DNA from: a virus
DNA: 64,000 nt
Strand: one strand, 5' to 3'
Virus record (IMG/VR): IMGVR_UViG_3300025137_003799
Coordinates: 15,711 to 79,710 of that record
The notes under the pieces are model-generated. The model was not told the origin of the DNA and did not search any database. It saw only the letters and a program-made list of their open reading frames with translations. This document shows positions 19,299 through 58,005 of this stretch, one piece after another. Positions within the stretch are counted from its first letter, which is position 1. Every line of letters starts with the position of its first letter. The translations under genes were made by a program, and so were the position numbers.

Positions 19299-19590
19299 TT
19301 TACAGGATCAAATATTAAAATCGTTTGGACTGGAAAAAACAATGTTCAAACAAATGTTTTATAATAAAAAAACTCTCAGACTAACAAAACGTGGCAGAGA
19401 TATGTTAAAGGCGAAATATGCCTTTTGGATATTCGACGATCACGAAATGGTAAGTAAGGATAGTATTTCGTTACAACGTAAAATGACTTACCCTTATTTT
19501 ATGGACAAAAGAACGCTAATACTCTTTACTGAGGTAGATGCATTTATGGTCAAGATGGCGGGAGTTAAAGGATGGATAGATGGAAAATAA
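19285..19590 (+). CDS. hypothetical protein
   Basis: Coupled ORF, LRLTKRG. Confidence 0.65.
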   Translation: MTTTDLQDQILKSFGLEKTMFKQMFYNKKTLRLTKRGRDMLKAKYAFWIFDDHEMVSKDSISLQRKMTYPYFMDKRTLILFTEVDAFMVKMAGVKGWIDGK

Positions 19591-20785
19591 AATAGAGGAG
19601 TTGGGAGTACCAAAAAGTTTCTGCTTTGCTCCCTATACTAACTTAGATTTAGATCAAGACGGATCTTTCTATCCATGTTATAGAAGTAAAGTTAGACAGG
19701 GAAAATGGAAAGACGGCAAGGTAGTGGAAGCATACAATAACGAAAGTATGCAGGAACTTCGTGATGATCTATGGCACGGCAGAGAAAATGATAACTGTAT
19801 TCAATGTCATAGAAGAGAGTCTGAAGGACAAAGATCAACTAGACAACAATACAATGAAGATGTACTTGATAATCGTATTGAATCAACAGAGTTTGTTGAG
19901 AAAATTATAGACAATCATTTAGTTGCAAGAGTAGAAGATATACATACTATGGAAGTTCGTCCACATGGAATGTGTACAAATGCCTGTGCTCACTGTGATG
20001 AAAATAGCAGTAGCAGATGGATTGCCCTACAGGATCTTGACAATACACCTTTCCTAGAGAACTATAAAGATGAACCCAATGTATTGGATGATCTATATAA
20101 CAAAGCAACAAATTTAAAAGCCATACACTTTACAGGTGGCGAGCCTTTACTATATGAAAAGACACACCTACAACATTTACAAAACATACCCAATAAAGAA
20201 ACAGTTGAACTTAGGTATCACAGTTCCTTAAAAACTTTACCTGGAGATGACATACGTGAAATATGGAAAACATTTGGTCACGTTAAAATTTTCGTTAGTT
20301 TAGATACAAGTGAAAAGTTTTATGCATATTTTAGATGGGGAAGTAATTGGCCAACTACAATTGAAAACATAGAAGCAATACGAGATATAGTTGAAATACA
20401 GGCCACAATCACTGTCAATATATTAACAATGTTGGATATTGTTCCTCTTATAAACTACTTAGTTGACAATGATATTGGAATGAACTCAAGTTTTGTGGAT
20501 CCTCCACACCAGCTTAGTTGTGTTTATCTTCCAAATAAGTTAAAAGCAAGAGCATGTGGAGAACTAAATCAAGCTCGTTTTAAAGTACAACAATATAAAA
20601 CTCCAAAGCATATGAGACTAGCAACAAAATGGTTAGCAGAGATTCAAGAGTTTATGATGAGCCAGGATCATGGTAATAGTTGGCCGAAAGATACTATCAA
20701 TATGTTTAGAACCTTAGATCATGTATATGGATTATTAATTAAAAACTATGATGCAGATCTTGACTTTGCCGTGCCTGTAAAATGA
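19580..20785 (+). CDS. radical SAM protein with N-terminal SPASM/twitch-like domain
   Basis: FCFAPY..PC..CIQC, then CTNACAHC, TGGEP. Confidence 0.9.
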   Translation: MENKIEELGVPKSFCFAPYTNLDLDQDGSFYPCYRSKVRQGKWKDGKVVEAYNNESMQELRDDLWHGRENDNCIQCHRRESEGQRSTRQQYNEDVLDNRIESTEFVEKIIDNHLVARVEDIHTMEVRPHGMCTNACAHCDENSSSRWIALQDLDNTPFLENYKDEPNVLDDLYNKATNLKAIHFTGGEPLLYEKTHLQHLQNIPNKETVELRYHSSLKTLPGDDIREIWKTFGHVKIFVSLDTSEKFYAYFRWGSNWPTTIENIEAIRDIVEIQATITVNILTMLDIVPLINYLVDNDIGMNSSFVDPPHQLSCVYLPNKLKARACGELNQARFKVQQYKTPKHMRLATKWLAEIQEFMMSQDHGNSWPKDTINMFRTLDHVYGLLIKNYDADLDFAVPVK

Positions 20786-20943
20786 AAGAATATTTAAAAG
20801 ACTTTTGGTTTTGGTATAAAGACTTCGGTGTGAAGTACGGTTGGTTCTGGGCTTTTGGTTATGCAAGATTTAATGCATTATACTTTAATAGAAACGGCCA
20901 GTGGAAACGTAATACAAACGGAGAAATAAATGAAAACAAGTGA
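20782..20943 (+). CDS. 53-aa aromatic-rich peptide
   Basis: Hand-translated MKEYLKDFWFWYKDFGVKYGWFWAFGYARF...; ATGA overlap with the rSAM stop. Confidence 0.55.
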   Translation: MKEYLKDFWFWYKDFGVKYGWFWAFGYARFNALYFNRNGQWKRNTNGEINENK

Positions 20944-21901: not shown

Positions 21902-21909
21902 TAAAAAGG

Positions 21910-21975: not shown

Positions 21976-23085
21976 ATGACTACAACAATTTCAGAAGCTC
22001 GTACTGTAAGAATTTCCGAAGCCAATCGACTTATTGTCAAGGCTTTTAGTAAGAAACGTCCTGTATTTTTATGGGGTCCTCCAGGTATTGGCAAGTCTGA
22101 ACTTGTTGATGGAATCGCTAAATCAGAAGTGCTGGGTAGAACGCTTGTTATTGACATGCGTCTTGCCCTTTTTGAGCCTACTGATCTGCGAGGGTATCCT
22201 GTTCCTGACGTAGCTAATGGTGTAATGCAATGGCTCCCCCCGGCTGATTTGCCCACACAGGAAACTGCTCAGGAATGGGATACTGTAATTTTATTCCTAG
22301 ACGAACTTAACTCAGCGGCTCCTAGCGTTCAAGCGGCCGCTTACCAGCTGATACTTAACAGACGTATTGGTCAGTATAAACTGCCAGAAAATGTTGTGGT
22401 AATTGCAGCAGGTAATCGTGAGACAGACAAAGGTGTTGCTTATAGAATGCCTAAGCCACTTGAGAACAGGTTTGTACACTTTGAGCTTCGTGTAGACTTT
22501 ACTGATTGGTTAAATTGGGCAGTAGATAACAATGTCAATGCTGATATAGTTGGTTACTTAACATTCGCTAAGAACGACTTATATAACTTTGATCCACAAA
22601 GTTCAAGCAGAGGATTCGCTACTCCTAGGGCATGGACTTTTGCAAGTGATCTATTAGAAGACGATGATCTTCCAGATAGTTTAACTACTGATCTAATTGC
22701 AGGTTGTGTAGGCGAGGGTGTAGCAATTAAGTTTATGGCACATAAAAAGATTGCAGGCGACTTGCCCAATCCAACTGATGTACTTGACGGTAAAATTAAG
22801 ACATTAGAAACTAAAGAAGTTAGTGCCATGTATGCTCTTGCAACCAGCCTATGTTATGAGTTGCGAGAAAGAAACCAACGTGGTGAAAAAGCTAAAAACT
22901 TAGATAGCTATCACAAGGCATTTAGTAACTTTATTGGCTTCATGCTAGATAATTTTGAGACTGAGATGACTGTTATGGCTAGTAGGATTGCTATGCAAAA
23001 CTATAAACTAGTTCCAAAGCAGGACAAAATTGAAAGATTTAATGAGTACTTTGAACGTTATGGTAGACTCGTACTTGACGCCTAA
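21976..23085 (+). CDS. MoxR-like AAA+ ATPase
   Basis: GPPGIGKS Walker A, LFLDE Walker B, AAGN, NRF, TPR. Confidence 0.88.
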   Translation: MTTTISEARTVRISEANRLIVKAFSKKRPVFLWGPPGIGKSELVDGIAKSEVLGRTLVIDMRLALFEPTDLRGYPVPDVANGVMQWLPPADLPTQETAQEWDTVILFLDELNSAAPSVQAAAYQLILNRRIGQYKLPENVVVIAAGNRETDKGVAYRMPKPLENRFVHFELRVDFTDWLNWAVDNNVNADIVGYLTFAKNDLYNFDPQSSSRGFATPRAWTFASDLLEDDDLPDSLTTDLIAGCVGEGVAIKFMAHKKIAGDLPNPTDVLDGKIKTLETKEVSAMYALATSLCYELRERNQRGEKAKNLDSYHKAFSNFIGFMLDNFETEMTVMASRIAMQNYKLVPKQDKIERFNEYFERYGRLVLDA

Positions 23086-23392
23086 ACTGAAGGAGGGAGA
23101 GACAATTGATCTTTCCCTTTTTCAACCACGTGAACGGGTTAGTATTCGTTTATATGGATTAGTGAATAAGGACTGGACACCCCAGGATGTATTTGAATAT
23201 AAAACCAAATGGAAGCCAGAAGCAGAAGTGGTAAATATTAGAGGTAACTTAGACAAAGCCCAAGCCTGGTGTAAGACACATTTATATATGCAGGATTGGG
23301 ATATAGTAAAACATGCAATGCCAGACGATAGTCACAATGTTTTATTTAAAAATGCCAAAGAAGCAATGCTATTTAGGTTAAGTTTAGGTTGA
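23060..23392 (+). CDS. hypothetical protein
   Basis: ORF between the ATPase and the VWA gene. Confidence 0.6.
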   Translation: MVDSYLTPKLKEGETIDLSLFQPRERVSIRLYGLVNKDWTPQDVFEYKTKWKPEAEVVNIRGNLDKAQAWCKTHLYMQDWDIVKHAMPDDSHNVLFKNAKEAMLFRLSLG

Positions 23393-23417
23393 CAAGTATA
23401 CAATTAGATAGTATACT
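23389..23417 (+). promoter_or_regulatory. sigma70-type promoter
   Basis: TTGACA-N17-TATACT; AGTATAC/GTATACT inverted repeat. Confidence 0.7.
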
Positions 23418-23446
23418 ATAGGTAGAATTAAAGAACAGGAGTTCAT

Positions 23447-24655
23447 ATGTTAAAGACTGCAGAAGAACGTATTACACAAAGTAGGGTTAGGTTATTATTA
23501 ACTAAGCCATTCTTTGGTACATTGGCTACTAGATTGCGTCTACAGGAAGTTGAATCTATTCCTACTGCTGGTACAGACGGTAGGCATTTCTACTTCAATA
23601 GAGAATTTATTAATCGTTTAGACGAAGGTGAACTTGATTTCCTAGTTGGACATGAAGTATTACATTGTGTATATGATCATATGCAGGCACGTGGTGATAG
23701 AAACCATGTACTGTATAATATTGCATGTGATTTTAATATTAATATGGAACTTATTACACAGAATATTGGTAAACTAATTGGTGAAGATAAACTAAACGGC
23801 GGCAAGCCTTGTTTAGATTGGAAATACCAGGGCAAGAACAGTTACGAGATTTACGATGAATTATTCCAGAGTGCAGAAGACGGCGGAACAGACGATCTAG
23901 CAGGTATGGACATTCATTTTGATGGTGAAGATGGTGACGGTGAAGGCTCTGGATATAAAGATGGTAATGGTAATCCTATTAAAGGTATGTCAGAAGAAGA
24001 AAAGAAGGCGTTAGGCGACGAGATAAAGCAGGCTGTTATTAATGCAGCTCAGGGTGCAGGACAAGAAGTACCAGAGACTATTAAACGTATGGTAGCAGAG
24101 TTGACAGCACCTAAGCTGGACTGGACAGATGTACTTCGTGTAAGTATTGAAAGCAGTCTAAAGAACGACTTTACTTTTTTAAGACCAAGTAAGCGTTCTG
24201 GAGAAGTTATTTTTCCAGGTATGAACAAAGACGAGATGTTGAATATTGCTATTGCACTTGATATGTCTGGTTCAATTGCTGATAGTGTTGCAAAGGAAAT
24301 GCTTAGTGAAGTACAAGGCATTATGGGACAATATAGTGATTATAAGATTACTGTATTCTGTTTTGATACTGGTGTATATAATGTAGATACGTTCTCAAGT
24401 GATGACGGACGTTTAATTACAGAGTATGATTTAGCTGGTGGTGGTGGAACAGACTTTGATGTAGTATATAAGTATATGGAACAACAAGGTCTTGAACCTG
24501 ATCAGCTTATTATGTTTACAGATGGTTATCCGTGGGGTAGTTGGGGAAATCCAGACTACTGTGATACACTATTTGTTATTCATGGTGATGAACAAAAACA
24601 AATTACTGCACCGTTTGGTATGACAGTACATTATGATACTGCATCAACAAGTTAA
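23447..24655 (+). CDS. metallopeptidase-VWA domain protein (DUF2201-like)
   Basis: TAGTDG, HEVLH, MIDAS DMSGS, GGGGTDF, FTDG. Confidence 0.85.
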   Translation: MLKTAEERITQSRVRLLLTKPFFGTLATRLRLQEVESIPTAGTDGRHFYFNREFINRLDEGELDFLVGHEVLHCVYDHMQARGDRNHVLYNIACDFNINMELITQNIGKLIGEDKLNGGKPCLDWKYQGKNSYEIYDELFQSAEDGGTDDLAGMDIHFDGEDGDGEGSGYKDGNGNPIKGMSEEEKKALGDEIKQAVINAAQGAGQEVPETIKRMVAELTAPKLDWTDVLRVSIESSLKNDFTFLRPSKRSGEVIFPGMNKDEMLNIAIALDMSGSIADSVAKEMLSEVQGIMGQYSDYKITVFCFDTGVYNVDTFSSDDGRLITEYDLAGGGGTDFDVVYKYMEQQGLEPDQLIMFTDGYPWGSWGNPDYCDTLFVIHGDEQKQITAPFGMTVHYDTASTS

Positions 24656-26347: not shown

Positions 26348-27027
26348 GTAATGAATATGTAAGTCCTCTAGCGACTCAGGAATATAAAGGTCCTGGAGAC
26401 TACTTGGGTGCAATAAAAGAACACTTTGACAAACAGAATTATTCAAGAGAACGATGGGCTACGCATTCAGAAAGTAGCCATAATCTAATACCTTATGTAA
26501 ACAATTTAAAACCAAATCTAGTATTAGATATTGGTTGTGGCACAAATCCATACAAAGGAGAAATTGATAATCTTATTGGAATGGATCTTGGGAATTATCC
26601 TGAAGCTGATATTAACCTGAGTTGCAATAGAGTACATGAACTAGGTATTTTTCAGCCGGGTTGTGCTGATGTAGTAATGGCTCTAGGTTCAATTAACTTT
26701 GGATCATTTGAAGATATTAAAAGACAGATCAGTATATGTATTGATTGGTGTAAACCTGGCGGACAACTTATAATGAGATGTAGATTAGGAAAAGATAATC
26801 CAAGGAACAGAAATAATGATAGACATCTATTTAAAACGTTTAATCAACATCCTTGGAAATGGGATCAAATATATGAGATCACTGAACTCTGGAAAGACCG
26901 TGTAGAATTTTTACACGAGCCAATACCAGAAACAGCCGCTGGAGGCGATACTAATGGCGCTGGGCATGGTAAGCCTGATCCTAATAGAAATATAGACTTA
27001 GCAGTCTGGTACTGGAGAAAACTATGA
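26344..27027 (+). CDS. class I SAM-dependent methyltransferase
   Basis: VLDIGCGTN, DVVMALGSINF, KPGG. Confidence 0.8.
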   Translation: MSNEYVSPLATQEYKGPGDYLGAIKEHFDKQNYSRERWATHSESSHNLIPYVNNLKPNLVLDIGCGTNPYKGEIDNLIGMDLGNYPEADINLSCNRVHELGIFQPGCADVVMALGSINFGSFEDIKRQISICIDWCKPGGQLIMRCRLGKDNPRNRNNDRHLFKTFNQHPWKWDQIYEITELWKDRVEFLHEPIPETAAGGDTNGAGHGKPDPNRNIDLAVWYWRKL

Positions 27028-28172
27028 AAATAAATGATATACTTTATGAAGCATTACCGCCTGATGACAACCCTTTTGGAGACGACAAAAGATCTCAGAA
27101 AGATAAAGAAAAAGCGGCATATATGGCTAGTCTTACAAAGGTCGCAACGTGGATGGGTCCAAACAGTAAAACTTGGAATGATGCATCAAACAAACTAGCA
27201 ATTAAGATGTACAAACAAGGATACAATCCTAAAGAAATATGGGGAATAACACAAAACATAATGGGAACAGATGGTCATTGGCGCCAAGAAATAGATGATA
27301 GTGGATCTCGTCTAATTCCAAATGCTAAAGGTGATACTATGGGAGATCAGATATATCACCCTGAACTTTATAAAGCATATCCAGGAATGAGAGACATACC
27401 AATTGATGCAAATTGGGACAACAGAGGATCTAGTGCTGGAGGAATGGTAAGTAATGGTAAAATTTATATTGGAAGTTACTACTCAGATGATAAAACTAAA
27501 ATTGAAGACAGACGAAGACTTGGAACAGGAAATCACGAATGGGGTCATGTAATTCAAAATAAATTTGAACCAAAATTTAGTGACGGAGACAATCCAAGGA
27601 CAGACTTAATTACAACAGTTGCTAGACAAAATAATATTACTCCTGATGCGGCATACAACGCCAAGGGCGGTGAGCATATGACTAGTGCTTCTGAGGTTAG
27701 ACATGATATGTCAAAGTCGGAGAGAGCAGCTACATTTCCTGACTTAACTCAGGGTGCAGACTTTAATCCTGCAAAAAGAATTACTATAGATAAAACTGAT
27801 AAAGTTCCAGCATTTGACTATAACAATCCAAACAAAAATAGAAATGCAATTAAAGGTGTTAGTGGTCCGCTCAAGGATATAGGCCTGGGAACGAAGCATG
27901 TAACGTTTGATAATCCACATCTTACTGACATATATCGAGATCCTAGCAAAGCTGATCTTGACAAAATTAGACGAGATTTAGCAGGAGGCAATACCTCAGG
28001 CAGTGGAGGCTCAGGTGCAGGCGGAACCAAACCTATAAAGAGACCCACTGGAAATAAAAAAATAAAGTATGGTGGAAAAGGTAAAAACGGTCTAGGAACA
28101 ATGACAAGTACGGGCCAAGTATTAGATTGGAAACCTAAATCAGACGCTCCACCAGGAGCAGACGGCAAATGA
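27024..28172 (+). CDS. LPD23-like / HExxH metallopeptidase protein, possible internal head protein
   Basis: GTDGHWRQEIDD, HPELYKAYP, HEWGH; N-terminus MKINDILYE; Gly-rich linker. Confidence 0.55.
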   Translation: MKINDILYEALPPDDNPFGDDKRSQKDKEKAAYMASLTKVATWMGPNSKTWNDASNKLAIKMYKQGYNPKEIWGITQNIMGTDGHWRQEIDDSGSRLIPNAKGDTMGDQIYHPELYKAYPGMRDIPIDANWDNRGSSAGGMVSNGKIYIGSYYSDDKTKIEDRRRLGTGNHEWGHVIQNKFEPKFSDGDNPRTDLITTVARQNNITPDAAYNAKGGEHMTSASEVRHDMSKSERAATFPDLTQGADFNPAKRITIDKTDKVPAFDYNNPNKNRNAIKGVSGPLKDIGLGTKHVTFDNPHLTDIYRDPSKADLDKIRRDLAGGNTSGSGGSGAGGTKPIKRPTGNKKIKYGGKGKNGLGTMTSTGQVLDWKPKSDAPPGADGK

Positions 28173-44774: not shown

Positions 44775-44798
44775 CGTTTTCTCCATGTTTTTTGGTAG

Positions 44799-44838
44799 CA
44801 TAAATATTTATGTTAATACAAAACTCCCATCTTGTCAA
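44799..44838. promoter_or_regulatory. divergent promoter: palindromic late promoters plus minus-strand sigma70 promoter
   Basis: Palindrome CATAAATATTTATG (44799-44812); minus-strand TTGACA(44838)-N17-TAACAT. Confidence 0.6.
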
Positions 44839-47499: not shown

Positions 47500-47671
47500 T
47501 CGTATGGCAGAATTAATGCAACCAATAGATCAACAAATTATGATGTGTGATGATAGAAATGATACACTAATGTTAGCATGTGCTATGTTGGAAAGATGCA
47601 AAACGATTCTAGATTACTCAATCGGTAAAGAAGGCCGTAGAGATATTATATCAGGAGCAAACGAAAGGTGA
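47477..47671 (+). CDS. hypothetical protein
   Basis: RBS AAGGAG; PIDQQIMMCD. Confidence 0.7.
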   Translation: MSDKTVTNRMAELMQPIDQQIMMCDDRNDTLMLACAMLERCKTILDYSIGKEGRRDIISGANER

Positions 47672-48570
47672 ATCCAGACTTCCATAATCATGGCAATAGT
47701 ATATGGAACCAACCATTTATTGACCATTTAAATGAGAACTTTTGGCCCACAATAGATCCGGCACACTTGCCACAAGAAGCTGATAAATTTTTAGAACTAT
47801 ATCCAGAATGGATTTCATCAAGTAAATTAAATCAGTTCCGTGGAATGGAAGGCTTTGAACATCGGTTTGTGAGTCTGGGAGCAACACAGGGTTTGGACTG
47901 GTGGCATTACTGGTGCATGGCAAACGGATATCGTCTGCGTATGTACAGAGGAGAATATCCATATAATAGAGATGTATTATTGGAAGGACAATGGACACAT
48001 GATCGCTTTATTGGTGATCGTCCACTAGCAAAGGGAGATGCTGTTATAGTTAGTCTGCCCTTTAGTGGTTCAGGTCGCAAGCCTACTGAGTGGAAAAATT
48101 TAATTGCTACATGCAATGAGAATAATATTCCTGTATTTGTTGATTGTGCTTGGTTCGGAACATGTACAGATATTGAAGTTAAACTAAATCAAGATTGTAT
48201 TAAAATGGTTGCATTTTCAACAACCAAAGGGTTGAGTTGTGGTAACTGGCGTGCAGGCATAGTCTTTAGTAGATTAAATGAAGGTAGTTTAGCAGTACAA
48301 ACAGAATGGCATCACGGTATCCATTTAAATTGTGCTATTGCAAATAGTTTAATGGAAAACTTTTCACCAGATACCATGCCTAAGAAGTACGCAGAAGCTC
48401 ATACAGCCGTATGTGATCACTATGGACTAGCAACTACTAATACAATACATATAGCACAAGCACCAATGACAGAAGACTGGAACCAATTCAGTAGAGACGG
48501 TGCATTTAATCGTGTTAATATACGAGACGCATTAAAAAGGTATAAGAAGAATGGCACGTTTGCCCAATAA
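47668..48570 (+). CDS. PLP-dependent fold-type I enzyme (aminotransferase-like)
   Basis: GATQ, VFVDCAW (PLP Asp), FSTTKG (Schiff-base Lys), RAG. Confidence 0.65.
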   Translation: MNPDFHNHGNSIWNQPFIDHLNENFWPTIDPAHLPQEADKFLELYPEWISSSKLNQFRGMEGFEHRFVSLGATQGLDWWHYWCMANGYRLRMYRGEYPYNRDVLLEGQWTHDRFIGDRPLAKGDAVIVSLPFSGSGRKPTEWKNLIATCNENNIPVFVDCAWFGTCTDIEVKLNQDCIKMVAFSTTKGLSCGNWRAGIVFSRLNEGSLAVQTEWHHGIHLNCAIANSLMENFSPDTMPKKYAEAHTAVCDHYGLATTNTIHIAQAPMTEDWNQFSRDGAFNRVNIRDALKRYKKNGTFAQ

Positions 48571-49867
48571 CGCATGTGCGTATCCATTTAAAGCAGTAAT
48601 GTTAATGCATGGACAACCTGCGACTCCTTGTTGTAGGTTCCATAGCCGTTTTATTGAAGATATAGATACAAAAGAGCTGGGCATAGCAATGGGTGGTACT
48701 GAGCGTGGCATCAATAATGATTTTATTAAGGTTATGCGTGGTCGTTTGCGTATGGATTTAAAAGAATATACGGATGATACATTCAAAGAGATACGTGAAA
48801 CTATGATGCGTAATGAATGGCACCCGGGTTGCTTTAAATGTAAGACAGATGAAGAAACAAAAGGACATTCAATGCGTACAGAAGCGAATGCTTTCTTTAC
48901 AGACTTTACAGATCAAACTCAACTACAGTATGTTGAAATAACTGTGGGTCGCAAGTGTAACCTAAAGTGTATGAGTTGTGGTCCGGAATATTCAACAAGA
49001 TGGGACGAAGATGCACTAAAGTTTCCTGAATTGGGTGTGTCACAGACTGATGTAGAACTTATGAAGAAGATCAATGAGGTTGATTTAGATGTAATAAAGC
49101 CGGAAACATTTAAAGACGTTAAGTATATCAAAGTAACAGGTGGTGAACCATTCCTACATCAACAGTTCCTGGATTTTATTGTTCGTTTAGCAGATTCAGG
49201 AGTTAGTACTAATATACACCTTGAGATATTTACAAATTGTACATGGTGGCCTAAAAAAACTGACTATGATGCACTAGCAACGTTTAGAAAGATTACTATT
49301 TGTCCAAGTATAGATGGCATAGGTGCTGTTAATGATGTATTAAGATTCCCCAGCAAGTGGGATAAGGTTGAAGCTACACTTGACAAGTGGATTGCAATGC
49401 GAGAACAGAATTCATGGGAACGTATTGAGATTAAAACAGCAACAACAATTAATGTAATCAATGCTCCCTATATGTATGAGTTTATGTTGTGGGCTAGGCA
49501 AGTTAAAAAGATTGGTGTTACCCTACAGACTGTTTATGAACCACATTACCTAAGTATACTTCACTGGCCTGACTGGTATAAAGAAAATTTGAAATATACA
49601 GTTAACAGTCAGTTCACAGAATACTTTGCTAATGACAAACACACCCAAAAACTAAAAAAGCTACTGTTGAACCTATGCAAACCCACAGGTGTTGAAGATC
49701 GTAGTTTTGAATATACTAATACAATTAAAAAATTATTAAGACACAGAAAGATACTTGATTTAGAAACAATTAGAAAATTTAAAGATCTAGTTGAGCTTGA
49801 TGCAACGCCTATTCCTGAATGGGGGCCGGGTAGTCGTTCAGATTGGAAAGGCAGAGGTAATGCATAA
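48551..49867 (+). CDS. radical SAM protein, N-terminal SPASM/twitch-like domain
   Basis: CAYPF..PCC..CFKC; CNLKCMSC; TGGEP. Confidence 0.9.
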   Translation: MARLPNNACAYPFKAVMLMHGQPATPCCRFHSRFIEDIDTKELGIAMGGTERGINNDFIKVMRGRLRMDLKEYTDDTFKEIRETMMRNEWHPGCFKCKTDEETKGHSMRTEANAFFTDFTDQTQLQYVEITVGRKCNLKCMSCGPEYSTRWDEDALKFPELGVSQTDVELMKKINEVDLDVIKPETFKDVKYIKVTGGEPFLHQQFLDFIVRLADSGVSTNIHLEIFTNCTWWPKKTDYDALATFRKITICPSIDGIGAVNDVLRFPSKWDKVEATLDKWIAMREQNSWERIEIKTATTINVINAPYMYEFMLWARQVKKIGVTLQTVYEPHYLSILHWPDWYKENLKYTVNSQFTEYFANDKHTQKLKKLLLNLCKPTGVEDRSFEYTNTIKKLLRHRKILDLETIRKFKDLVELDATPIPEWGPGSRSDWKGRGNA

Positions 49868-51068
49868 GTCAAAAACATTTTGCATGTTGCCTTTCATACA
49901 CATATACGGCTCAGCTGGTGGAAACCTAGTACCCTGTTGTGAAGCACAGGAAACTCCTCTAAACAATCCAGGCGAGTCTGCTGAGTTGGCCTGGAATAAC
50001 GAAAACTATAGAGAATTACGCAGAGCTCTTTCAAATGATGAACGCCCGGAACGTTGTCAGGTGTGTTGGCACAATGAAGACAGTGGTATTGTAAGTAATC
50101 GTCAGCAATGGGAAAAAGATAATTGGGATATGTATAGTGAAACTGTTGACGTACAAGCAGACTATTCAGTACTCAACAAACCAACATGGATAGAACTTAA
50201 GGTAAGTAACTTCTGTAACCTAAAATGTATTATGTGTTCAACTCATTCAAGTTATAAACGTGTACAGGACTTGGATATTATAAGCAAGTATCAGAAGGAT
50301 GGTCACGAAACACGTCTACTTCGCCCTACGGCGCTCATTGACAGTATTAGTGATTGGAGTGACATCTGGAGTACAGTCAAAGTACTGCAATTTACAGGTG
50401 GTGAACCTATTATTAATGAAGAACACTATACCCTATTGGCATCAATTCCAGCAGAACACAAACGAAATATAAAGCTACGTTATGCAACAAACATAAGCCA
50501 TATTAAATTTAAAAAACATGATTTAATTAAAATATGGAGTGAATTCAAACATGTTAACATTAAAGTAAGCATGGACGGTGTGGGATCAGTGTATGATTAT
50601 ATACGACAGGACGGTTCCTGGGATACAGTCTATGCTAATATGCTAACACTATCAACTATAGACACAATTGATTTGGCTGTGGGAATCACAGTACAAGCAC
50701 ACAACATATATCATATGCCGGAGTTCTACAAGTTCTGGAGTGAATCACCTATTGATCTAATGTTTATTACTGCTAATATACTACATACTCCAAAATATTT
50801 AAGTCCTGCCTTATGGCCAGACGAATATAGAGTAGCAATAATACAGAAATTAATATCAGCATTACCGGAGTTTCCGGAAATGAAACGATTTATAACATAT
50901 ATGAATAACAACTCAGAATATAATCCCGTGGGTTATGCTCGCATGCGAAAGTATACTCGTGATTTAGAAAATAGATATACAAAATCAACTACACTAAAGA
51001 GTATGATTAAAGACCATCTAAAAATTAGTTTAGAAGGCATGGACAAAGTTCAGGAGCGTATTCAATAA
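49860..51068 (+). CDS. radical SAM protein, N-terminal SPASM/twitch-like domain
   Basis: FCMLPF..PCC..CQVC; CNLKCIMC; TGGEP. Confidence 0.9.
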   Translation: MHKSKTFCMLPFIHIYGSAGGNLVPCCEAQETPLNNPGESAELAWNNENYRELRRALSNDERPERCQVCWHNEDSGIVSNRQQWEKDNWDMYSETVDVQADYSVLNKPTWIELKVSNFCNLKCIMCSTHSSYKRVQDLDIISKYQKDGHETRLLRPTALIDSISDWSDIWSTVKVLQFTGGEPIINEEHYTLLASIPAEHKRNIKLRYATNISHIKFKKHDLIKIWSEFKHVNIKVSMDGVGSVYDYIRQDGSWDTVYANMLTLSTIDTIDLAVGITVQAHNIYHMPEFYKFWSESPIDLMFITANILHTPKYLSPALWPDEYRVAIIQKLISALPEFPEMKRFITYMNNNSEYNPVGYARMRKYTRDLENRYTKSTTLKSMIKDHLKISLEGMDKVQERIQ

Positions 51069-52492
51069 TGCAACGAGGACAGAAAGCCTGGGACTATAGT
51101 CATACAGAACATGCATATCCGGTTGTTCATGTGTTCCAACCTGCTAACAAAGATCTAAATAAATGGCCCATACTTAAACAAAAGCTGGGCCTAGTACAAC
51201 AAGTGGAAAGTAATAATCATTTAAGAGGTGGCGTTGTAAATCTTTACAACACTATGGAAACAAGTTGGATAGTTGCTATGCATAAAATGGGCTACCGTTA
51301 TGCATGTATATGGTTTGATGGTGCTTGGGCTGATACACATGATTTTAATTTAGCACTACTTACAGAAATAGATAGATTAAATAAAACAGAATGGTTAGCC
51401 GCCGGACAAATACAAGCAAGAGATGATGAATACCCTTTCTTTACTCGTAACTGTGTACTACTAAACATTGCTACTTGGATGGCACAGGATCAACCCAATC
51501 CACATGTACAGCCTCCAGTCTATCCCAACTACATTGTAGTTGATGGCTTTGAAGATTCATGTTACAGTCTAGTGGAAGCAGAACCTACAGATCTAAGCTG
51601 GATGATATTTAATAAAGCTCAGCATTTTGCCAACGCTTGGATTGCCTGGAGTTTGAGACGACATCTAACAGTACCCGGACTAAGTGATGACTTTGCAGAT
51701 ACAATTACATTTACTCGTCCTATAAATGGTACAGATGAATTTCAGAAGGGTATTAGTGGAGAAGCATATGATCCAGAGCCTCTGAGCCACAGAGCCAAGT
51801 ATATGTGCAAACGATTAACTGATGTATCATCACCCATATACTTTGTTAACACTGAAAACTCAAGACCCGAAACAGTTGACTCACTAGTGGGTAGTAACTT
51901 TGAACAGTATGTAGGACCCTGTGCTGGTTTTAAATTATTATATTATGCATACAAGTATGGTGTTTCAGAATCAACAGAGTTTTTATTCTATGACTTTGAT
52001 CCAGATAGTGTGAAGTTTAAACAGGATACGCTTGAACATTGGACGGGCGATAACTTTGTTGCTTGGGTTAAGCAGTGGATATCAGCACACCCTGGAGTTA
52101 ACACAGAGCTTGAACATCAAGTACAGGAAAAGTGGGCGACTACGCTGGAACAGTTCGGTGGAGAATCAAGTTTCAAACGCTTCTGGGCAAGAGTACAGTC
52201 AGCTAAGTGGCAATGTTGTCAAGTGGATCTAATTAACGATTACCAACAGTTGGTAAATACTATGCAACACAAAAGAACATTCTTTTGGAGTAGTAATATC
52301 TATAGTTACATGCCAATTAAACTCTCCAGTGACAGCTTTGCAATGGAAAATAGTTTTATTAATATAATTAAAACGCTTAACACTAAACCCGACAGTTGGT
52401 TTAGTGGAACAGACATCAATGACAATGATCTAATGTGTCCAAGTACCGCAATACTAAGTGTACAGGACAACAACAATATAGGATTCGAATAA
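51068..52492 (+). CDS. two-domain hypothetical protein (paralog of 52496)
   Basis: WFDGAW, LLNI..W, YFVNTE, PCAG, YDFD, SNIY. Confidence 0.7.
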   Translation: MQRGQKAWDYSHTEHAYPVVHVFQPANKDLNKWPILKQKLGLVQQVESNNHLRGGVVNLYNTMETSWIVAMHKMGYRYACIWFDGAWADTHDFNLALLTEIDRLNKTEWLAAGQIQARDDEYPFFTRNCVLLNIATWMAQDQPNPHVQPPVYPNYIVVDGFEDSCYSLVEAEPTDLSWMIFNKAQHFANAWIAWSLRRHLTVPGLSDDFADTITFTRPINGTDEFQKGISGEAYDPEPLSHRAKYMCKRLTDVSSPIYFVNTENSRPETVDSLVGSNFEQYVGPCAGFKLLYYAYKYGVSESTEFLFYDFDPDSVKFKQDTLEHWTGDNFVAWVKQWISAHPGVNTELEHQVQEKWATTLEQFGGESSFKRFWARVQSAKWQCCQVDLINDYQQLVNTMQHKRTFFWSSNIYSYMPIKLSSDSFAMENSFINIIKTLNTKPDSWFSGTDINDNDLMCPSTAILSVQDNNNIGFE

Positions 52493-52495: not shown

Positions 52496-53959
52496 ATGGA
52501 AATGAATATACACTTTAAAGATGAAGGTAAAGAAATAATACACGTCTTTACAGGAACAGGTGACGGTGCTGAAACAGAACCTGAACTAACTGCACACTTA
52601 AGACAGATACTAAAAATAAAACTAACTAATTCTTGTGACTACAGTTGGTGTGAGCTGGGTGATCCCTATAACAAATCCTGGATTAAACATCTAGCTAACT
52701 TGGGATACCACTTAGCAGTTGTATGGTATGATGGTGCATGGCCAGAGAGTTCAGATTTAGAAACAGAACTAAAGAGTTGGTGGGCTAAACAAAGCATTTC
52801 AGATACTCCCTGGGTGTTTAGTGGACAATTAATATATAGAGCTGATCGCGAACGTCCTGACTATCCACATGTATATCCGGGTTGTGCTATTATTAATCTA
52901 CAGGAATACTTAGTAGCAGGCGAACCCAGTCCTTTATTCTTTGATACAGCAACTCGTATGCCTTGCTTTCGTCTAAGTGGTGAAAATATACATGATGATT
53001 ATACTCCAACTTGGATTGAGCGTGATGCGGGCGAGCTGTCAAAAGAATCACATACCTTTCCCGGAACATATCTGGATCATCTAATACCAAACAGTTTAGT
53101 AAAAGATTATAGAGTAATTAACTTACCACAGGCCATACGTAGAAATATGCACAGTTGTTATCCTGAAGATGATATTGAATCAACTAAGAAATGGTTATTG
53201 GATCCGGACTTTTTAAAAGACAAAACACCACAAGAAGTAAAGGAGTTTGGCTATACCCTACCGGAAGACAAAATGGAATTGTATGGTTACAAGATACAAC
53301 AGTTTCAAGTACTGTATGTTACCAACACAGAGAATGTACCCAAGCGAGATAGTGAACTTGATTCAGTAGGCTTTACTAAACATGTTGTACCCTGTGCCGG
53401 ATTACATCAGTTCTGGCATTTGTTACAGGATCAGGATACTCTAAGTTCAGTACTATGGTATGACTTTAATCCCTATGCAATTCAATGGACAGAGATGATC
53501 CTAATGGAATGGGACGGCAGAGACTTTGTTAAGTTTTATGAAGATAATATTTCACGAATCATTTCAGATGGTGTTATTGCTGAGGACTGTGTTATATTTA
53601 ATCCTGAACTATATCATGAACTAGTAGCGACTATAGGAGAAGATTCAACAGGACAATTACAGGGTTGGGATTATATACAGAGTCTAGATCATGACTTTTT
53701 AGAGTGTGACATAGTAAATAACTGGAGAGAGTTTTGTGAAACAATTGGTTATAACAATCGTTTGTTTCTACAGTTAACAAATATCTGGCAATATGAAAGT
53801 AATTATTTAAATACAACGGCACTACAAGCACAGACAAGTTTTTTAAATATAATTAAAACGCTGTTGGATACAAATTTAGATGTTTATTTTACTGGCAACT
53901 CACCGGGAGGACAACATTTTACTTACGCTAATATGCGATTACATAGGAGTATACTATAA
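52496..53959 (+). CDS. two-domain hypothetical protein (paralog of 51068)
   Basis: WYDGAW, IINL, YVTNTE, PCAG, YDFN, TNIW. Confidence 0.7.
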   Translation: MEMNIHFKDEGKEIIHVFTGTGDGAETEPELTAHLRQILKIKLTNSCDYSWCELGDPYNKSWIKHLANLGYHLAVVWYDGAWPESSDLETELKSWWAKQSISDTPWVFSGQLIYRADRERPDYPHVYPGCAIINLQEYLVAGEPSPLFFDTATRMPCFRLSGENIHDDYTPTWIERDAGELSKESHTFPGTYLDHLIPNSLVKDYRVINLPQAIRRNMHSCYPEDDIESTKKWLLDPDFLKDKTPQEVKEFGYTLPEDKMELYGYKIQQFQVLYVTNTENVPKRDSELDSVGFTKHVVPCAGLHQFWHLLQDQDTLSSVLWYDFNPYAIQWTEMILMEWDGRDFVKFYEDNISRIISDGVIAEDCVIFNPELYHELVATIGEDSTGQLQGWDYIQSLDHDFLECDIVNNWREFCETIGYNNRLFLQLTNIWQYESNYLNTTALQAQTSFLNIIKTLLDTNLDVYFTGNSPGGQHFTYANMRLHRSIL

Positions 53960-54696
53960 TGTGGTATGAAGGAGACATACAAAAATTTGAAGATGTAAAT
54001 GAAGAAACTGTATTATTCTTTATGGAGAACGAACACCTAAAACCAAAATTTGCTGGTGTTGATAATAGTGAACTATTACTAAAATCTGATGATTTGAATA
54101 CTATAGGTGATGTTACAAACTATCCCTGGGCACCTGTTGATATCGCAGTACCCTGGAAAGAAATATTTGACGAAGCGAATCATTTGTTGTATACTAGTTG
54201 TTATACACTACACCGTCCCGATTCAAGTGGCTGGTTAAGTTTGTGTATGTATGGTATGAGTTCAGTACATACAAATGTTCCGGAAGACTATGGACTACCG
54301 GATAGTGCTGAGAATGATTTGAGCGATTGGACAGATATATCAAAATTTTGTCCTCGTACTAAGGAATGGATGCAGGATGAAATGTTGTATGAACGTTTTA
54401 GTCGTGTACGTTTCATGGCAGTATTACCGGGAGGATGGTTGGCTCCGCATGCGGATAAAGACACCATGGGTTTCGGTGCTACCAATGTGGCAATTAATAA
54501 TCCAGATGGTTGTGGATTAGTAATGGAAGACTGGGGTACGTTGCCTTTTACTCCGGGTTCAGTATTTAAAATTAATACTGGATACAAACATGCAGTATGG
54601 AATAGAAGCGAGGAACCTCGTATACATATGATATTTGATGGCGACCCAAGTGACGACTTTAAAAGAAAGGTCAATACTGGCTATGCCGGAATGTAA
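53959..54696 (+). CDS. 2OG-Fe(II) oxygenase (Asp/Asn beta-hydroxylase-like)
   Basis: RVRFM..PGG..PHAD; HAVWNRSEEPRIHMI. Confidence 0.8.
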   Translation: MWYEGDIQKFEDVNEETVLFFMENEHLKPKFAGVDNSELLLKSDDLNTIGDVTNYPWAPVDIAVPWKEIFDEANHLLYTSCYTLHRPDSSGWLSLCMYGMSSVHTNVPEDYGLPDSAENDLSDWTDISKFCPRTKEWMQDEMLYERFSRVRFMAVLPGGWLAPHADKDTMGFGATNVAINNPDGCGLVMEDWGTLPFTPGSVFKINTGYKHAVWNRSEEPRIHMIFDGDPSDDFKRKVNTGYAGM

Positions 54697-55657
54697 GATT
54701 TTTGATCACGGAGTTTGTGTAGGGCCAACAGGTGCAGTTAGGCCTTGTTGTGCTTTTATGACACAGGGCATTCCAAATATGCGGTGGGAAGAAAATTGGA
54801 GACCTCGACATGATGCTTGGCGAGAAAAATCAAAAACTACATGGCTTGATCAATGTATAGAATGTAAACAGGATGAAGAAATAAATGGTCACAGTCTACG
54901 CATGTACTACAATGAAGAACTGGAATACGCTGAAGGTATTAAGTATTGGGATTTAAAAATTAACAATACATGCAATCTAGCTTGTAGAATGTGTGATCCA
55001 ACTTCATCAAGTATCTGGCAACAGATAGCAATAAACGATCCGGACAGGCAACTAGCTTCACATTATCACAACAAAGTAGATGGAAAGTGGCATAAGGAAG
55101 CAAAAGACTTTTTATATAGAATGGTTGACGCAAGTCACGTAAAGTTTACAGGTGGAGAACCATTTCTAATACCACAAGTTAAGAAAATTATTGAAGGGCT
55201 AATAGATATGGACGTTGCGGCCGCTGTTAACCTACAATTAATTACAAACGGTACACACAATATATCAAAATGGAACCATTTGTTTGCGGAATTCAAAAGA
55301 GTAAATATAAGTATAAGTTTAGATGCTATCGGAAAACGTTACGAATATATCCGTCCGGGTGCTTCGTGGGAACAAGTTAGCACTAATGTACTGGATTGGA
55401 ATGCTTCAAAAGGTAAAAATAGTAACATATGGATTACAGCCCTACCAATGATTTTAAATAAAGATCATTTATGGCAAGTAGAAGAATGGTGTAGCAAAAA
55501 TAAATTAAATTTTGGGGCAGCATCACCTTGTATTAATCCAGCGTTTTTACGCACTACAGCGTGGGACGATCCAAAATTAAGAGTTAAGTTTATAGAACAA
55601 ATGGAAATATTGGACAAAATACACAACACCAACTGGAGAGACTTCGTAAATGAGTAA
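54683..55657 (+). CDS. radical SAM protein, N-terminal SPASM/twitch-like domain
   Basis: C..RPCC..CIEC; CNLACRMC; TGGEP. Confidence 0.9.
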   Translation: MPECKIFDHGVCVGPTGAVRPCCAFMTQGIPNMRWEENWRPRHDAWREKSKTTWLDQCIECKQDEEINGHSLRMYYNEELEYAEGIKYWDLKINNTCNLACRMCDPTSSSIWQQIAINDPDRQLASHYHNKVDGKWHKEAKDFLYRMVDASHVKFTGGEPFLIPQVKKIIEGLIDMDVAAAVNLQLITNGTHNISKWNHLFAEFKRVNISISLDAIGKRYEYIRPGASWEQVSTNVLDWNASKGKNSNIWITALPMILNKDHLWQVEEWCSKNKLNFGAASPCINPAFLRTTAWDDPKLRVKFIEQMEILDKIHNTNWRDFVNE

Positions 55658-56861
55658 AAAATTACCAAGTGATACATTTTGCGTTTTACCTTTTATGCAC
55701 GCCGCAGTAAGTCCTACTGGCAGTTTTAGAGTATGTTGTAATAGTAATCCTAAAAATAATAAAATTATGAAAACTCCCGAGAAGGAGTTTAAAATGTTTA
55801 GAGATGATATTAACGAAGCATGGAACTCAGCAGACTATAAAAAGATTCGTAAGGAATTTATAGCTGGTGAACGTCCTGAAACATGTCAACGTTGTTTTAG
55901 AGAAGAAGATGCAGGCATACGTTCACCACGTATAGGTTACAATGAAAAGTGGTGGCGAGATGATGTACAAGTAGCAGAGGAAATACCTTTAGATGTACGT
56001 TATGTTGATATACGATTAGGTAATTTGTGTAATTTAAAATGTCGTATGTGTAATCCCTGGAGCTCAAGTATGTGGGTTAAGGATTGGAATAAGATTGTAG
56101 ACACAGCAGAACTGGCACCTAACGAACCACTTAGTGATAAAGATTTATCCTGGATGGGACAGCTGGGTGAGTGGCCAGATCGTGAACAGACAGGTGTTAA
56201 CTTTGTTGAAATAGCAAGTACTATTAAAGAAATATATTTAACTGGCGGTGAACCCACACTAGCCACAAGTCAGTATGCACTATTTGATTATTGTATTAAA
56301 AATGATCTAGCCGCCGGCATTAAATTAAAATATAATACTAATTTAACAAATGTACCGGACAAAATGATTGATTATTGGAGTCACTTTAAAGGCGTACAAC
56401 TTAATGCAAGTATTGATGCAACAGGTGCCCGTGACAGATACATTCGTTATCCCAGCAGTTGGAAACGTATTGTGGAAATCTTTGACAAACTAAACGCTCT
56501 ACCCAATGTAGCAATGCAGATACATTGTACAGTTCAGGGACTAAACATGTGTGCAATGCCAGAACTATTGGATTGGATTAAGAGCAAGGGATTACGAGAT
56601 GATCAGATATATTTAAATATATTAAATCATCCAGAAAGTATGAATATACGAACCCTTCCTCATGAACTGAAGGTAATGGCAGAAAATAGCCTACAGGACT
56701 ACTTGCACATACCAAAAGTATCTGATACAATCAAGTATATGTGGGCAGAAGACTGGCATGAGAAACGCTGGAAAGAGTTTGTAGCGTTTAATACCAAAGC
56801 AGATGAATTACAAAAAGGAAATCTATTGGAAGTATGTCCGGAGTTTGCTGGGCATGTCTGA
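55650..56861 (+). CDS. radical SAM protein, N-terminal SPASM/twitch-like domain
   Basis: FCVLPF..RVCC..CQRC; CNLKCRMC; TGGEP. Confidence 0.9.
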   Translation: MSKKLPSDTFCVLPFMHAAVSPTGSFRVCCNSNPKNNKIMKTPEKEFKMFRDDINEAWNSADYKKIRKEFIAGERPETCQRCFREEDAGIRSPRIGYNEKWWRDDVQVAEEIPLDVRYVDIRLGNLCNLKCRMCNPWSSSMWVKDWNKIVDTAELAPNEPLSDKDLSWMGQLGEWPDREQTGVNFVEIASTIKEIYLTGGEPTLATSQYALFDYCIKNDLAAGIKLKYNTNLTNVPDKMIDYWSHFKGVQLNASIDATGARDRYIRYPSSWKRIVEIFDKLNALPNVAMQIHCTVQGLNMCAMPELLDWIKSKGLRDDQIYLNILNHPESMNIRTLPHELKVMAENSLQDYLHIPKVSDTIKYMWAEDWHEKRWKEFVAFNTKADELQKGNLLEVCPEFAGHV

Positions 56862-58005
56862 TACATATTGCAATGAGCCCTGGAGAACCGCACACTATGA
56901 TGAAGTGGGTAAGCTAGGACCTTGTTGTACATATAGAGGTAAACGTCCCGACTTTACTAAAATAGATGACTACTGGTCAAGTGAGTGGTTACGAGACTTT
57001 CGTGAGAAATTAGGTACAGGCATAAAAGAAGAGGGTTGCTTTAACTGTTGGCGTAAGGAAGATCGTGGAGAATACAGCCAGAGAACAGATAAAAATAGAC
57101 GCCACGGCTATATAGATAAACCCAAACTAGAGGAATTGTTTTTAAGTTTTGGAAATATATGTAATAAAAGTTGTGGTGTATGTAGACCCAGTCGTAGCCA
57201 TTTAATTGCAAAAGAATATAAGTCAATACCCAAAGACAATAATTGGTTATTAACTTTACCCGGTAACAAAACACAGAAAGTTCTTAGTGATAAAAAATAT
57301 TCAGGACATTACTTAGAGCATTTTGAGGATTATAAGTCAGCACTTGAGTCAGCCGATACAATTTATTTGGATGGTGGTGAACCTTTTATTGTTAGTCAGT
57401 GTACAGAAATACTGGAATACTTAATTGCAAAAGGTATGACACATAAGAAGATCAAAGCCGGAACAAACGGTTCAGTTACTGATAGTCAGTTGGAACTACT
57501 GAGTAAATTTAAGTCAGTTAGTTTCCATTTAAGTATAGACGGTATAGAAGAATTATATCCAGTTGTACGCCCGCCACATGATTGGCAATGGTTCCTGGAT
57601 AGTCAGTCACGTATACAGAAGTATCCACGTATGAATATTACATATGCCTGTGTTATTCATGCATTTAATATACATCAGTTACCTCGTATGGTTCGTTACT
57701 TTATAGATCAAAGACGAGTCCATGCTAAGACACATATATTCTTTAGTCAGATAAATTCAAACAAACATTTAGAACCTAGTGTTGTACCAATAGAAGTTAT
57801 GAACCAGACGATAAAAGAATTAAAATTAATTGTTAAAACTTCAACAAATGACGACAAGCGACAAGTTAAACAGATGATTCAACATTTGGAAATGCAGTTA
57901 CAAAAAGATGATCCTGATGTTAAAAAGAGCTTTGATCTTTATTGCGATACATTTTCAAAAATAAAGAATATTAAATACGGAGAACATATACCGTGGATCG
58001 CATGA
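56854..58005 (+). CDS. radical SAM protein, N-terminal SPASM/twitch-like domain
   Basis: YCNEPW..PCC..CFNC; CNKSCGVC; GGEP. Confidence 0.9.
   Translation: MSDTYCNEPWRTAHYDEVGKLGPCCTYRGKRPDFTKIDDYWSSEWLRDFREKLGTGIKEEGCFNCWRKEDRGEYSQRTDKNRRHGYIDKPKLEELFLSFGNICNKSCGVCRPSRSHLIAKEYKSIPKDNNWLLTLPGNKTQKVLSDKKYSGHYLEHFEDYKSALESADTIYLDGGEPFIVSQCTEILEYLIAKGMTHKKIKAGTNGSVTDSQLELLSKFKSVSFHLSIDGIEELYPVVRPPHDWQWFLDSQSRIQKYPRMNITYACVIHAFNIHQLPRMVRYFIDQRRVHAKTHIFFSQINSNKHLEPSVVPIEVMNQTIKELKLIVKTSTNDDKRQVKQMIQHLEMQLQKDDPDVKKSFDLYCDTFSKIKNIKYGEHIPWIA

Follow-up and report, generated by a model that had tools for sequence, protein, structure and literature searches.

Eleven predicted radical SAM proteins with an N-terminal twitch domain on a phage contig belong to a gene cassette shared with Bdellovibrionota

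Introduction

In radical S-adenosylmethionine (SAM) enzymes, SPASM and twitch domains have been described as C-terminal (PMC9012708, PMC9477430), and some members of the SPASM/twitch megacluster contain additional cysteines N-terminal to the barrel (PMC9477430, RadicalSAM.org). The prototype of the twitch enzymes, the 2-deoxy-scyllo-inosamine dehydrogenase BtrN (PDB 4M7T), holds an auxiliary [4Fe-4S] cluster ligated by four cysteines and carries out the two-electron oxidation of a secondary alcohol, which is followed by transamination in the next step (PMC9012708). In this study, we have analysed a stretch of 64,000 nucleotides, referred to as the window, which extends from base 15711 to base 79710 of a 79.7-kb IMG/VR virus contig (IMGVR_UViG_3300025137_003799) and which encodes eleven predicted radical SAM proteins whose auxiliary domain is located ahead of the core. 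These proteins are assigned to the NCBIfam family NF033640, termed N_Twi_rSAM and described as 'twitch domain-containing radical SAM protein', and they are accompanied by a set of partner genes that reappears on bacterial chromosomes.

Arrays of radical SAM genes are also found in the Campylobacter phages CP220 and CPt10, which contain 11-12 of them (Timms et al. 2010, PMC2853527). In CP220, a module behind the baseplate genes combines five radical SAM genes with a putative amidinotransferase and two nucleotide-diphospho-sugar transferase-like proteins (PMC2853527). While this amidinotransferase is 24% identical to one of the window proteins (44856, see below), the CP220 radical SAM proteins contain an N-terminal core, score at best 30.9 bits with NF033640, none of them above the cut-off, and belong to a phage of unrelated host and lineage. 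In the Synechococcus phage S-SCSM2R, an amidinotransferase that was detected in virion preparations (PMC12801897) adjoins KdsA and KdsB, and no member of the NF033640 family is found in this phage. By analogy, the CP220 and S-SCSM2R modules point the same way, which would be towards a sugar.

Results

Eleven members of the N_Twi_rSAM family

The CheckV completeness of the contig amounts to 22%, which suggests a full phage genome of about 350 kb. The window has a GC content of about 0.36-0.37, nearly all of its genes up to 59.4 kb are carried by the plus strand, and no tRNA genes were found in it. A preliminary description of the sequence had named eleven open reading frames (ORFs) in which an N-terminal cysteine block precedes a CX3CX2C motif and a GGE motif, an arrangement that was borne out in all eleven. 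The ORFs are uninterrupted and located on the plus strand, and their products all pass the curated cut-off of NF033640 (170 bits), with scores of 170.4-409.2 bits over nearly the full length of the model. Since no member above the cut-off was found in 14 control genomes, the pattern is confirmed and not a product of chance. The genes are listed below with their NF033640 scores and are named throughout by their first position.

19580-20785, plus strand: N_Twi_rSAM, 401 residues, 229.4 bits, apart from the main island
36276-37685, plus strand: N_Twi_rSAM, 469 residues, 409.2 bits, the highest score of the eleven
38232-39455, plus strand: N_Twi_rSAM, 407 residues, 256.5 bits, SPASM at residues 6-76
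39439-40581, plus strand: N_Twi_rSAM, 380 residues, 247.6 bits
40578-41843, plus strand: N_Twi_rSAM, 421 residues, 297.9 bits
46249-47499, plus strand: N_Twi_rSAM, 416 residues, 250.5 bits, SPASM at 42.8 bits, second twitch cysteine replaced by Asp
48551-49867, plus strand: N_Twi_rSAM, 438 residues, 231.7 bits
49860-51068, plus strand: N_Twi_rSAM, 402 residues, 317.2 bits
54683-55657, plus strand: N_Twi_rSAM, short (324 residues) with a truncated hairpin, 170.4 bits, borderline
55650-56861, plus strand: N_Twi_rSAM, 403 residues, 380.4 bits, modelled with AlphaFold2 (AF2)
56854-58005, plus strand: N_Twi_rSAM, 383 residues, 220.9 bits

At four loci, the longest frames (from 38217, 49791, 54635 and 56803) begin 5' of the ATG codons chosen in the preliminary description, whose choice appears reasonable because alignments to the family model begin within residues 1-12 of the respective products. 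The more detailed cysteine motif proposed for the N-terminal block holds for most of the proteins, with the exception of 46249, where Asp-Ile is found instead of the cysteine pair, of 19580, which has a single cysteine at this place (PCY), and of 54683, whose hairpin follows the pattern C-x9-CC. An additional radical SAM protein, encoded by ORF 3177, displays the canonical order that had been ascribed to it, with CX3CX2C starting at residue 18 and C255/C259, PCC278-279 and C347/C351 located towards the C-terminus.

A twitch-type domain ahead of the radical SAM core

The conserved features of the proteins are numbered here according to the 55650 protein. Invariant in all eleven are C11, C79, C82, C127, C131, C134 and the sequence G199-G200-E201, whereas C29 is kept in ten of them. 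CX3CX2C and GGE are found in all 119 viral family rows that were fetched, and the four twitch cysteines, with a spacing of C-x17-C-x~45-60-C-x2-C, are present in essentially every full-length member among the 290 family matches in all fetched loci, except for the orthogroup of 46249. They define a domain of about 100 residues before the core, which is in turn followed by a helical tail. In 7 of 10 proteins scanned, Pfam recognises SPASM (PF13186) in the first 60-90 residues ahead of Radical_SAM, as illustrated by 19580, where SPASM covers residues 15-77, Radical_SAM follows and the CX3CX2C motif starts at residue 132.

The nature of this domain is reflected in its relationship to BtrN. Positions 6-81 of a whole-family profile match BtrN residues 166-236, and a profile of the N-terminal domain alone, assembled from 18 window and bacterial sequences, retrieves BtrN as sole match (E 2.9e-4) among 177,635 distinct PDB sequences. 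In the latter alignment, the four conserved cysteines fall on C169, C187, C232 and C235 of BtrN, the ligands of its auxiliary cluster. The AF2 model of the 55650 protein, with a predicted local distance difference test score (pLDDT) of 94.3 and a predicted template modelling score (pTM) of 0.89, contains a beta-hairpin (residues 17-20 and 25-27) located between C11 and C29 as well as helices ahead of C79/C82, elements that follow one another as in a twitch domain. The proposal that the N-terminal cysteine block constitutes a twitch/SPASM-type domain before the core is thus upheld by the exclusive match to BtrN in the PDB, the alignment of the four cysteines and the detection of SPASM by Pfam.

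The twitch domains of BtrN and of the window proteins are therefore homologous in spite of their opposite location, after the core in the former and before it in the latter. The likeness is confined to this domain (E about 3e-4), whereas the core of the window proteins is closer to anSME, BlsE and SkfB, which were matched at Z 12-13 by residues 115-368 of the 55650 model in alignments that are sequential and cover only the core. Both programs used, Foldseek and VIA-align, are sequential aligners and thus blind to a permutation in space. A similar relationship holds for the SPASM/twitch subgroup (SFLD 17), where the auxiliary domain, itself homologous to the N-terminal domain of the window proteins, is a C-terminal extension, whereas it occupies residues ~1-100 here, ahead of the core. 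The eleven proteins are thus members of NF033640 with an N-terminal twitch domain, and each would bind two [4Fe-4S] clusters, one of them in the twitch domain.

A catalogued family and its Cys-to-Asp variant

The preliminary description had interpreted this arrangement as a permuted radical SAM subfamily. While the permuted architecture is real, it is not new, since NF033640 has already been curated under a name that denotes its N-terminal twitch. The window proteins share with this family the N-terminal twitch domain, the CX3CX2C core and the helical tail and show no structural difference, whereas the 46249 orthogroup deviates by an Asp at the position of the second cysteine ligand. NF033640 is a 'subfamily' model without assigned function. 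With a profile of the eleven paralogs, 8,046 representatives (clusters at 50% identity) were identified at E <= 1e-30 among 1.84 billion. The top matches of this profile (P0154-P0181) are proteins of about 800 residues that consist of two complete N_Twi_rSAM units in tandem. Two true members, at 316 and 305 bits, are encoded by the cultured Ralstonia phage RsoM2USA (344 kb), where the family genes occupy record positions 126888-128168 and 217357-218661, and a megablast search of the radical SAM island against cultured phages gave no match. Our literature searches found neither a functional study of the family nor a paper naming it and, as far as they show, it has not already been functionally characterised, as the preliminary description had required for its proposal to stand. 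N_Twi_rSAM is thus a large and catalogued family for which no functional study was found.

In the orthogroup of 46249, Asp-Ile is found where other members contain Cys-Cys, which replaces the second ligand of the twitch domain (C29). This replacement is kept in the 14 viral rows that were fetched, some of which are duplicate loci, and in two orthologues from Bdellovibrionota. As judged from this conservation, it is a conserved change of a ligand and not a sign of decay, and it suggests that the auxiliary cluster of these proteins may either be ligated by Asp or contain an open site.

Ancient paralogs in phages and Bdellovibrionota

The large number of copies had initially been attributed to an expansion in this phage lineage, which finds no support in view of the low identity of the paralogs, their bacterial clade-mates and the presence of 11-19 copies on chromosomes of Bdellovibrionota, all indicating that the diversification predates the phage lineage. 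The window paralogs share 21-33% identity with the 55650 protein. Syntenic orthologues of 46249, 48551, 49860, 54683 and 55650 are found in 15 related IMG/VR loci at 36-78% identity, and those of 56854 in three loci. Within this range, identities are 62-67% for 46249 (in L001-L015), 45-56% for 48551, 64-73% for 49860, 36-50% for 54683 and 62-78% for 55650 in the 15 viral loci, with about 40% for the orthologues of the latter in Bdellovibrionota. A relative of the 55650 protein at 90% identity is encoded on a 344-kb contig, and the 36276 protein is 61-62% identical to Bdellovibrionota genes in four loci (L022, L023, L026 and L032).

These relationships were further resolved in a maximum-likelihood tree of 233 distinct members from the fetched loci, which include 17 viral and the best 76 cellular loci, the latter with one genome per species and overwhelmingly from Bdellovibrionota. 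Seven of the eleven window paralogs are each located in a clade of their own together with bacterial sequences, as in case of 40578, whose exclusive clade includes 28 bacterial members. The 56854 protein is part of a small clade of four, and 19580, 38232 and 39439 are without close relative in a tree whose loci did not cover their region.

Related phage contigs, all of them partial, contain 5, 13, 13, 15 and 18 copies; T4 Gp23 was not found in five such contigs, which is uninformative in view of their incompleteness. In five Bdellovibrionota genomes, 11-19 copies each were identified, some in tandem arrays that are translationally coupled, and an assembly consisting of a single chromosome of 1.9 Mb contains 16. 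Members above the cut-off are present in 45 of 201 sampled Bdellovibrionota genomes compared to 3 of 301 from Pseudomonadota, in a count that includes the seed genome. The bacterial arrays are flanked by Mfd, NuoH, GlmM, FtsH and sigma-70, and the contig of one Pseudobdellovibrionaceae metagenome-assembled genome (L020) encodes Ppk, PEPCK, ETF-QO and peptidases and has a GC content of 50% throughout. Two simpler accounts could thus be dismissed, a recent burst of phage-specific genes because the paralogs share 21-33% identity and fall into clades with both phage and bacterial members, and a mis-binning of phage contigs as bacterial on the basis of the housekeeping flanks and the closed 1.9-Mb chromosome with its 16 copies. 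In an 11.6-kb locus of a 1.9-Mb Bdellovibrionales chromosome, six N_Twi_rSAM genes (L068:1320-9257) overlap in tandem and are translationally coupled. A further radical SAM gene and one resembling asparagine synthases come next, and the locus is free of sugar genes.

Judging from the tree and the identities, the copies are ancient paralogs, most of which form their own orthogroup in jumbo-phage contigs, Bdellovibrionota chromosomes or both. That each of them would act on a different site or substrate, as the preliminary description had assumed, is plausible and fits the separate conservation of most copies.

Partner genes of the cassette

The radical SAM genes are accompanied in the window by the following genes, whose assignments are predictions.

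41827-43020, plus strand: amidinotransferase paralog 1, C-terminal GGIHC motif kept
44856-45926, plus strand: amidinotransferase paralog 2, PDB matches HsvA (E 8e-26), StrB1 (E 3e-21), SxtG and AGAT
43911-44801, minus strand: KdoO-like Fe(II)/2-oxoglutarate dioxygenase, sole PDB match of its profile KdoO (5y9i, E 2.3e-4)
47668-48570, plus strand: short pyridoxal phosphate (PLP)-dependent, fold type I aminotransferase-like protein, D159, S184-x-x-K187 and R195 invariant in 19 homologues
51068-52492, plus strand: protein of two domains, glycosyltransferase (GT)-A-like and class I methyltransferase-like, AF2 pLDDT 81
52496-53959, plus strand: paralog of 51068, 21% identical to it
53959-54696, plus strand: cupin oxygenase of the Asp/Asn beta-hydroxylase family (AspH-like), PF05118 at E 2.6e-12
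57993-58562, plus strand: conserved partner of 189 residues, no Pfam or PHROG match, in 12 viral and 3 bacterial loci
37678-38229, plus strand: homologue of 5'-methylthioadenosine/S-adenosylhomocysteine (MTA/SAH) and 5'-deoxyadenosine nucleosidases, Pfam PNP_UDP_1 at E 1.6e-16
14605-15753, plus strand: S-adenosylmethionine synthetase (MetK), all three Pfam S-AdoMet_synt domains
3177-4268, plus strand: radical SAM protein of canonical order with C-terminal PCC...CxxxC, not an NF033640 member (40.7 bits, core only)
990-1694 and 1681-2655, plus strand: two genes whose homologues flank the 36276-type radical SAM gene in Bdellovibrionota, found by tblastn in 8 and 9 bacterial loci

The two amidinotransferases are paralogous and match the same bacterial genes. 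In 44856, which is 46% identical to genes in L020 and L085, the catalytic cysteine is aligned in the PDB matches, among them the inosamine-phosphate amidinotransferase StrB1. The 43911 protein aligns with KdoO, which hydroxylates 3-deoxy-D-manno-octulosonic acid (Kdo) at position 3, including the HxD motif and the distal histidine (H151, D153 and H252, all invariant), and it has an ESM Atlas score of 0.96 to PF11004 clusters. Together with an uncharacterised gene (43013-43951), it is transcribed in the direction opposite to the rest of the island. The PLP enzyme shows weak aminotransferase matches across the stretch from D159 to R195 and has homologues in 15 viral and 11 bacterial loci. In the model of the 51068 protein, VIA-align relates residues 15-250 to GT-A enzymes (Z 9-10.7) and residues 252-474 to Rossmann folds of the methyltransferase type (Z 12.8 and 9.4). 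The 53959 hydroxylase is kept in 15 viral and 6 bacterial loci, and in two Bdellovibrionota loci (L020:14993-17236 and L052:1716-3938) proteins of 740-748 residues fuse a hydroxylase of this type to a GT-A/methyltransferase-like domain of the 52496 type; a similar fused cluster of 688 residues is found in the ESM Atlas. Because of their fusion in bacterial loci, the phage genes 53959 and 52496 are probably functionally linked.

Two further genes relate to the supply of SAM and the removal of its products. For the 37678 protein, which is wedged between radical SAM genes, all 35 PDB matches are MTA/SAH or aminofutalosine nucleosidases (best E 8.4e-8). The MTA/SAH nucleosidase of E. coli also clears 5'-deoxyadenosine, an inhibitory by-product of radical SAM enzymes. 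MetK is 46-55% identical to its counterparts in Bdellovibrionota, a generic level of identity, and an assignment of the host on this basis was dropped. The canonical radical SAM protein 3177 is 43-45% identical to Bdellovibrionota genes that adjoin the orthologues of 36276; homologues of 36276, 990, 1681 and 3177 are adjacent in these bacteria and the same set of four genes spans 33 kb in the phage. For the 990 and 1681 families, no Pfam or PDB match was found, and motifs of the DGDN and GxGxG-like kind provide no more than a hint.

A bacterial counterpart is found in L020, which contains relatives of 40578, 46249, 48551, 49860, 54683 and 55650 together with an amidinotransferase (46%), the PLP enzyme (46%), a KdoO-like protein, the hydroxylase and a GT-A/methyltransferase-like protein. 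Unlike in the phage, this cassette is chromosomal, its GC content is about 50% compared to 37%, and the hydroxylase and GT-A/methyltransferase-like proteins are fused. The cassette, as delineated by homology, is thus composed of the eleven radical SAM genes and those of putative amidinotransferases, a PLP enzyme, two hydroxylases and two GT-A/methyltransferase-like proteins, and it is shared with chromosomes of Bdellovibrionota.

Other genes of the window

Ten ORFs of the island are without Pfam or PHROG match (28851, 30607, 31789, 32669, 34180, 34977, 35526, 57993 and, on the minus strand, 43013 and 43911). Just upstream of the radical SAM island, a gene at 29429-30610 belongs to the flavin-dependent tryptophan halogenases (PF04820, E 3.6e-82), and a pentapeptide-repeat protein is encoded at 33291-34340 amid about ten ORFs without Pfam or PHROG match. 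A MoxR-type AAA ATPase followed by a DUF2201 metallopeptidase/VWA protein (21976-24655) constitutes a CobS/CobT-like pair, which is common in large marine phages, and the product of 27024-28172 combines an LPD23 domain (large polyvalent protein associated) with an HEWGH motif resembling the site of a zinc peptidase. A block of nucleotide genes (5123-14531) contains an ORF related to tRNA-guanine transglycosylase (TGT) and DpdA, with a DSGGFQ motif and no Pfam match, as well as GTP cyclohydrolase I, a phosphoribosyltransferase, thymidine kinase, RpiB and a truncated gene resembling UDP-glucose/GDP-mannose dehydrogenases. On the minus strand, 62629-63696 encodes only the catalytic domain of a Rieske-oxygenase alpha subunit (PF00848, weak).

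Discussion

The distinct composition of the cassette leads us to lean, with modest confidence, towards a multi-step and oxygen-independent tailoring pathway acting on a substrate of the sugar type, a view that is drawn from the gene neighbours. In such a pathway, each enzyme would cleave SAM, with formation of the 5'-deoxyadenosyl radical, and abstract one particular hydrogen from a common substrate of the sugar type, which may be a Kdo-like ulosonic acid or else a glycan. The electron of the substrate radical would pass to the auxiliary cluster, as proposed for BtrN (PMC9012708), in a two-electron oxidation of the BtrN/anSME type, while some copies may epimerise or dehydrate instead. Transamination of the resulting keto groups would be the task of the PLP enzyme and amidination that of the amidinotransferases, and additional groups would be attached by the hydroxylases and the transferase-like proteins, with MetK supplying SAM and the nucleosidase removing inhibitory 5'-deoxyadenosine. 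Since the PLP enzyme and the amidinotransferases are fixed partners, a conversion from alcohol to ketone, amine and guanidine would explain some of the steps most simply. It resembles the pathway of BtrN in that a PLP enzyme is a conserved neighbour where the product of BtrN is transaminated next, whereas a cyclitol as substrate is without support here. The KdoO-like and GT-A-like partners argue against a peptide and for a sugar, perhaps a ulosonic acid. In the gaps of the island, comparison with related loci reveals no small ORF that is conserved and might encode a precursor peptide.

Several observations weigh against this proposal. The substrate class is assigned from gene neighbours alone, among which the match to KdoO is weak (E 2.3e-4), with PF11004 not reported by Pfam, and the likeness of the modelled folds to GT-A enzymes is middling (Z 9-11). 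Neither a nucleotide-sugar synthase nor a flippase nor a classical GT was found in the island, where about ten ORFs have no Pfam or PHROG match. In addition, some bacterial arrays consist almost purely of radical SAM genes with no adjoining sugar genes, and the closest folds of the core include anSME, SkfB, SuiB and CteB, which modify peptides or proteins.

The last two observations are also compatible with a role as maturases, which would introduce cross-links, epimerisations or oxidations into a ribosomal peptide or into proteins of the virion or host. Most characterised SPASM/twitch enzymes act on peptides or proteins. The 53959 protein matches PF05118, a family whose enzymes hydroxylate protein residues, its fusion to GT-A-like domains has precedent in the bacterial loci, and the top rank in a Foldseek search with the 51068 model is the lysyl hydroxylase/glycosyltransferase LH3. 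The AspH-like hydroxylase and the GT-A-like proteins might thus hydroxylate and glycosylate the same protein by a logic known from LH3 and collagen. However, the template modelling (TM) score of the LH3 match is 0.2, neither Pfam nor NCBIfam reports a RiPP recognition element (RRE) or PqqD-like domain, with the N-terminus being a twitch domain instead, none of the small ORFs in the gaps of the island is conserved in related loci, and amidinotransferases, PLP enzyme and KdoO-like hydroxylase are typical of the chemistry of small molecules and sugars. We thus consider maturation of peptides or proteins unlikely. Less probable still is the synthesis of a free guanidino metabolite related to aminocyclitols or aminoglycosides, a diffusible, streptidine-like toxin or signal instead of a glycan decoration, which would involve oxidation of a cyclitol as in BtrN, transamination and amidination as in StrB1. 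This route would account for BtrN as the only PDB match of the N-terminal domain, for the similarity of 44856 to StrB1 (E 3e-21) and for the adjacent PLP enzyme, and the authors describing cyanophage S-SCSM2R have interpreted a similar trio as genes for antibiotic synthesis (PMC12801897). In contrast, the annotatable ORFs include no sugar-phosphate cyclase, inositol-phosphate synthase, kinase or exporter, the best amidinotransferase match is HsvA and not StrB1, the PLP enzyme is short and class I/II-like instead of the DegT/BtrS type, and the GT-A-like and KdoO-like partners suggest attached sugars.

The presence of a 7-deazaguanine locus with FolE and the DpdA/TGT-like ORF 5123 (DSGGFQ), and of genes for dCMP deaminase and thymidine kinase in the same window, raises the question of whether the array might extend the DNA-modification chemistry of the phage or otherwise act on nucleotides, as do viperin and MoaA, which are among the matches of the core fold. 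We regard this as highly improbable, since the array is located about 30 kb from the 7-deazaguanine genes, nucleotide genes are found beside the radical SAM genes in none of the 17 viral and 76 bacterial loci, and the arrays of Bdellovibrionota adjoin nothing but housekeeping genes.

As a doubtful but specific proposal, the cassette might represent a previously undescribed form of glycan editing. Dedicated N-terminal-twitch enzymes, one for each of at least ten oxygen-independent steps, might convert a Kdo-like sugar, or another acidic one, into a structure decorated with amino and guanidino groups, and the pathway might have been kept by jumbo phages and Bdellovibrionota, as unrelated predators of Gram-negative cells, to remodel or mask the cell envelope or the surface of the virion during attack.

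Phages in which 15-30 kb are devoted to 11-18 such enzymes, and which also encode their own MetK and nucleosidase, must derive a substantial benefit from them, and the same toolkit is present in predatory bacteria. The Cys-to-Asp orthogroup provides a natural variant for how the ligation of the auxiliary cluster tunes function. Identification of the substrate would provide thousands of proteins with a chemical role and could uncover modified sugars or metabolites of a new class in the interactions between virus and host and between predator and prey in the ocean.

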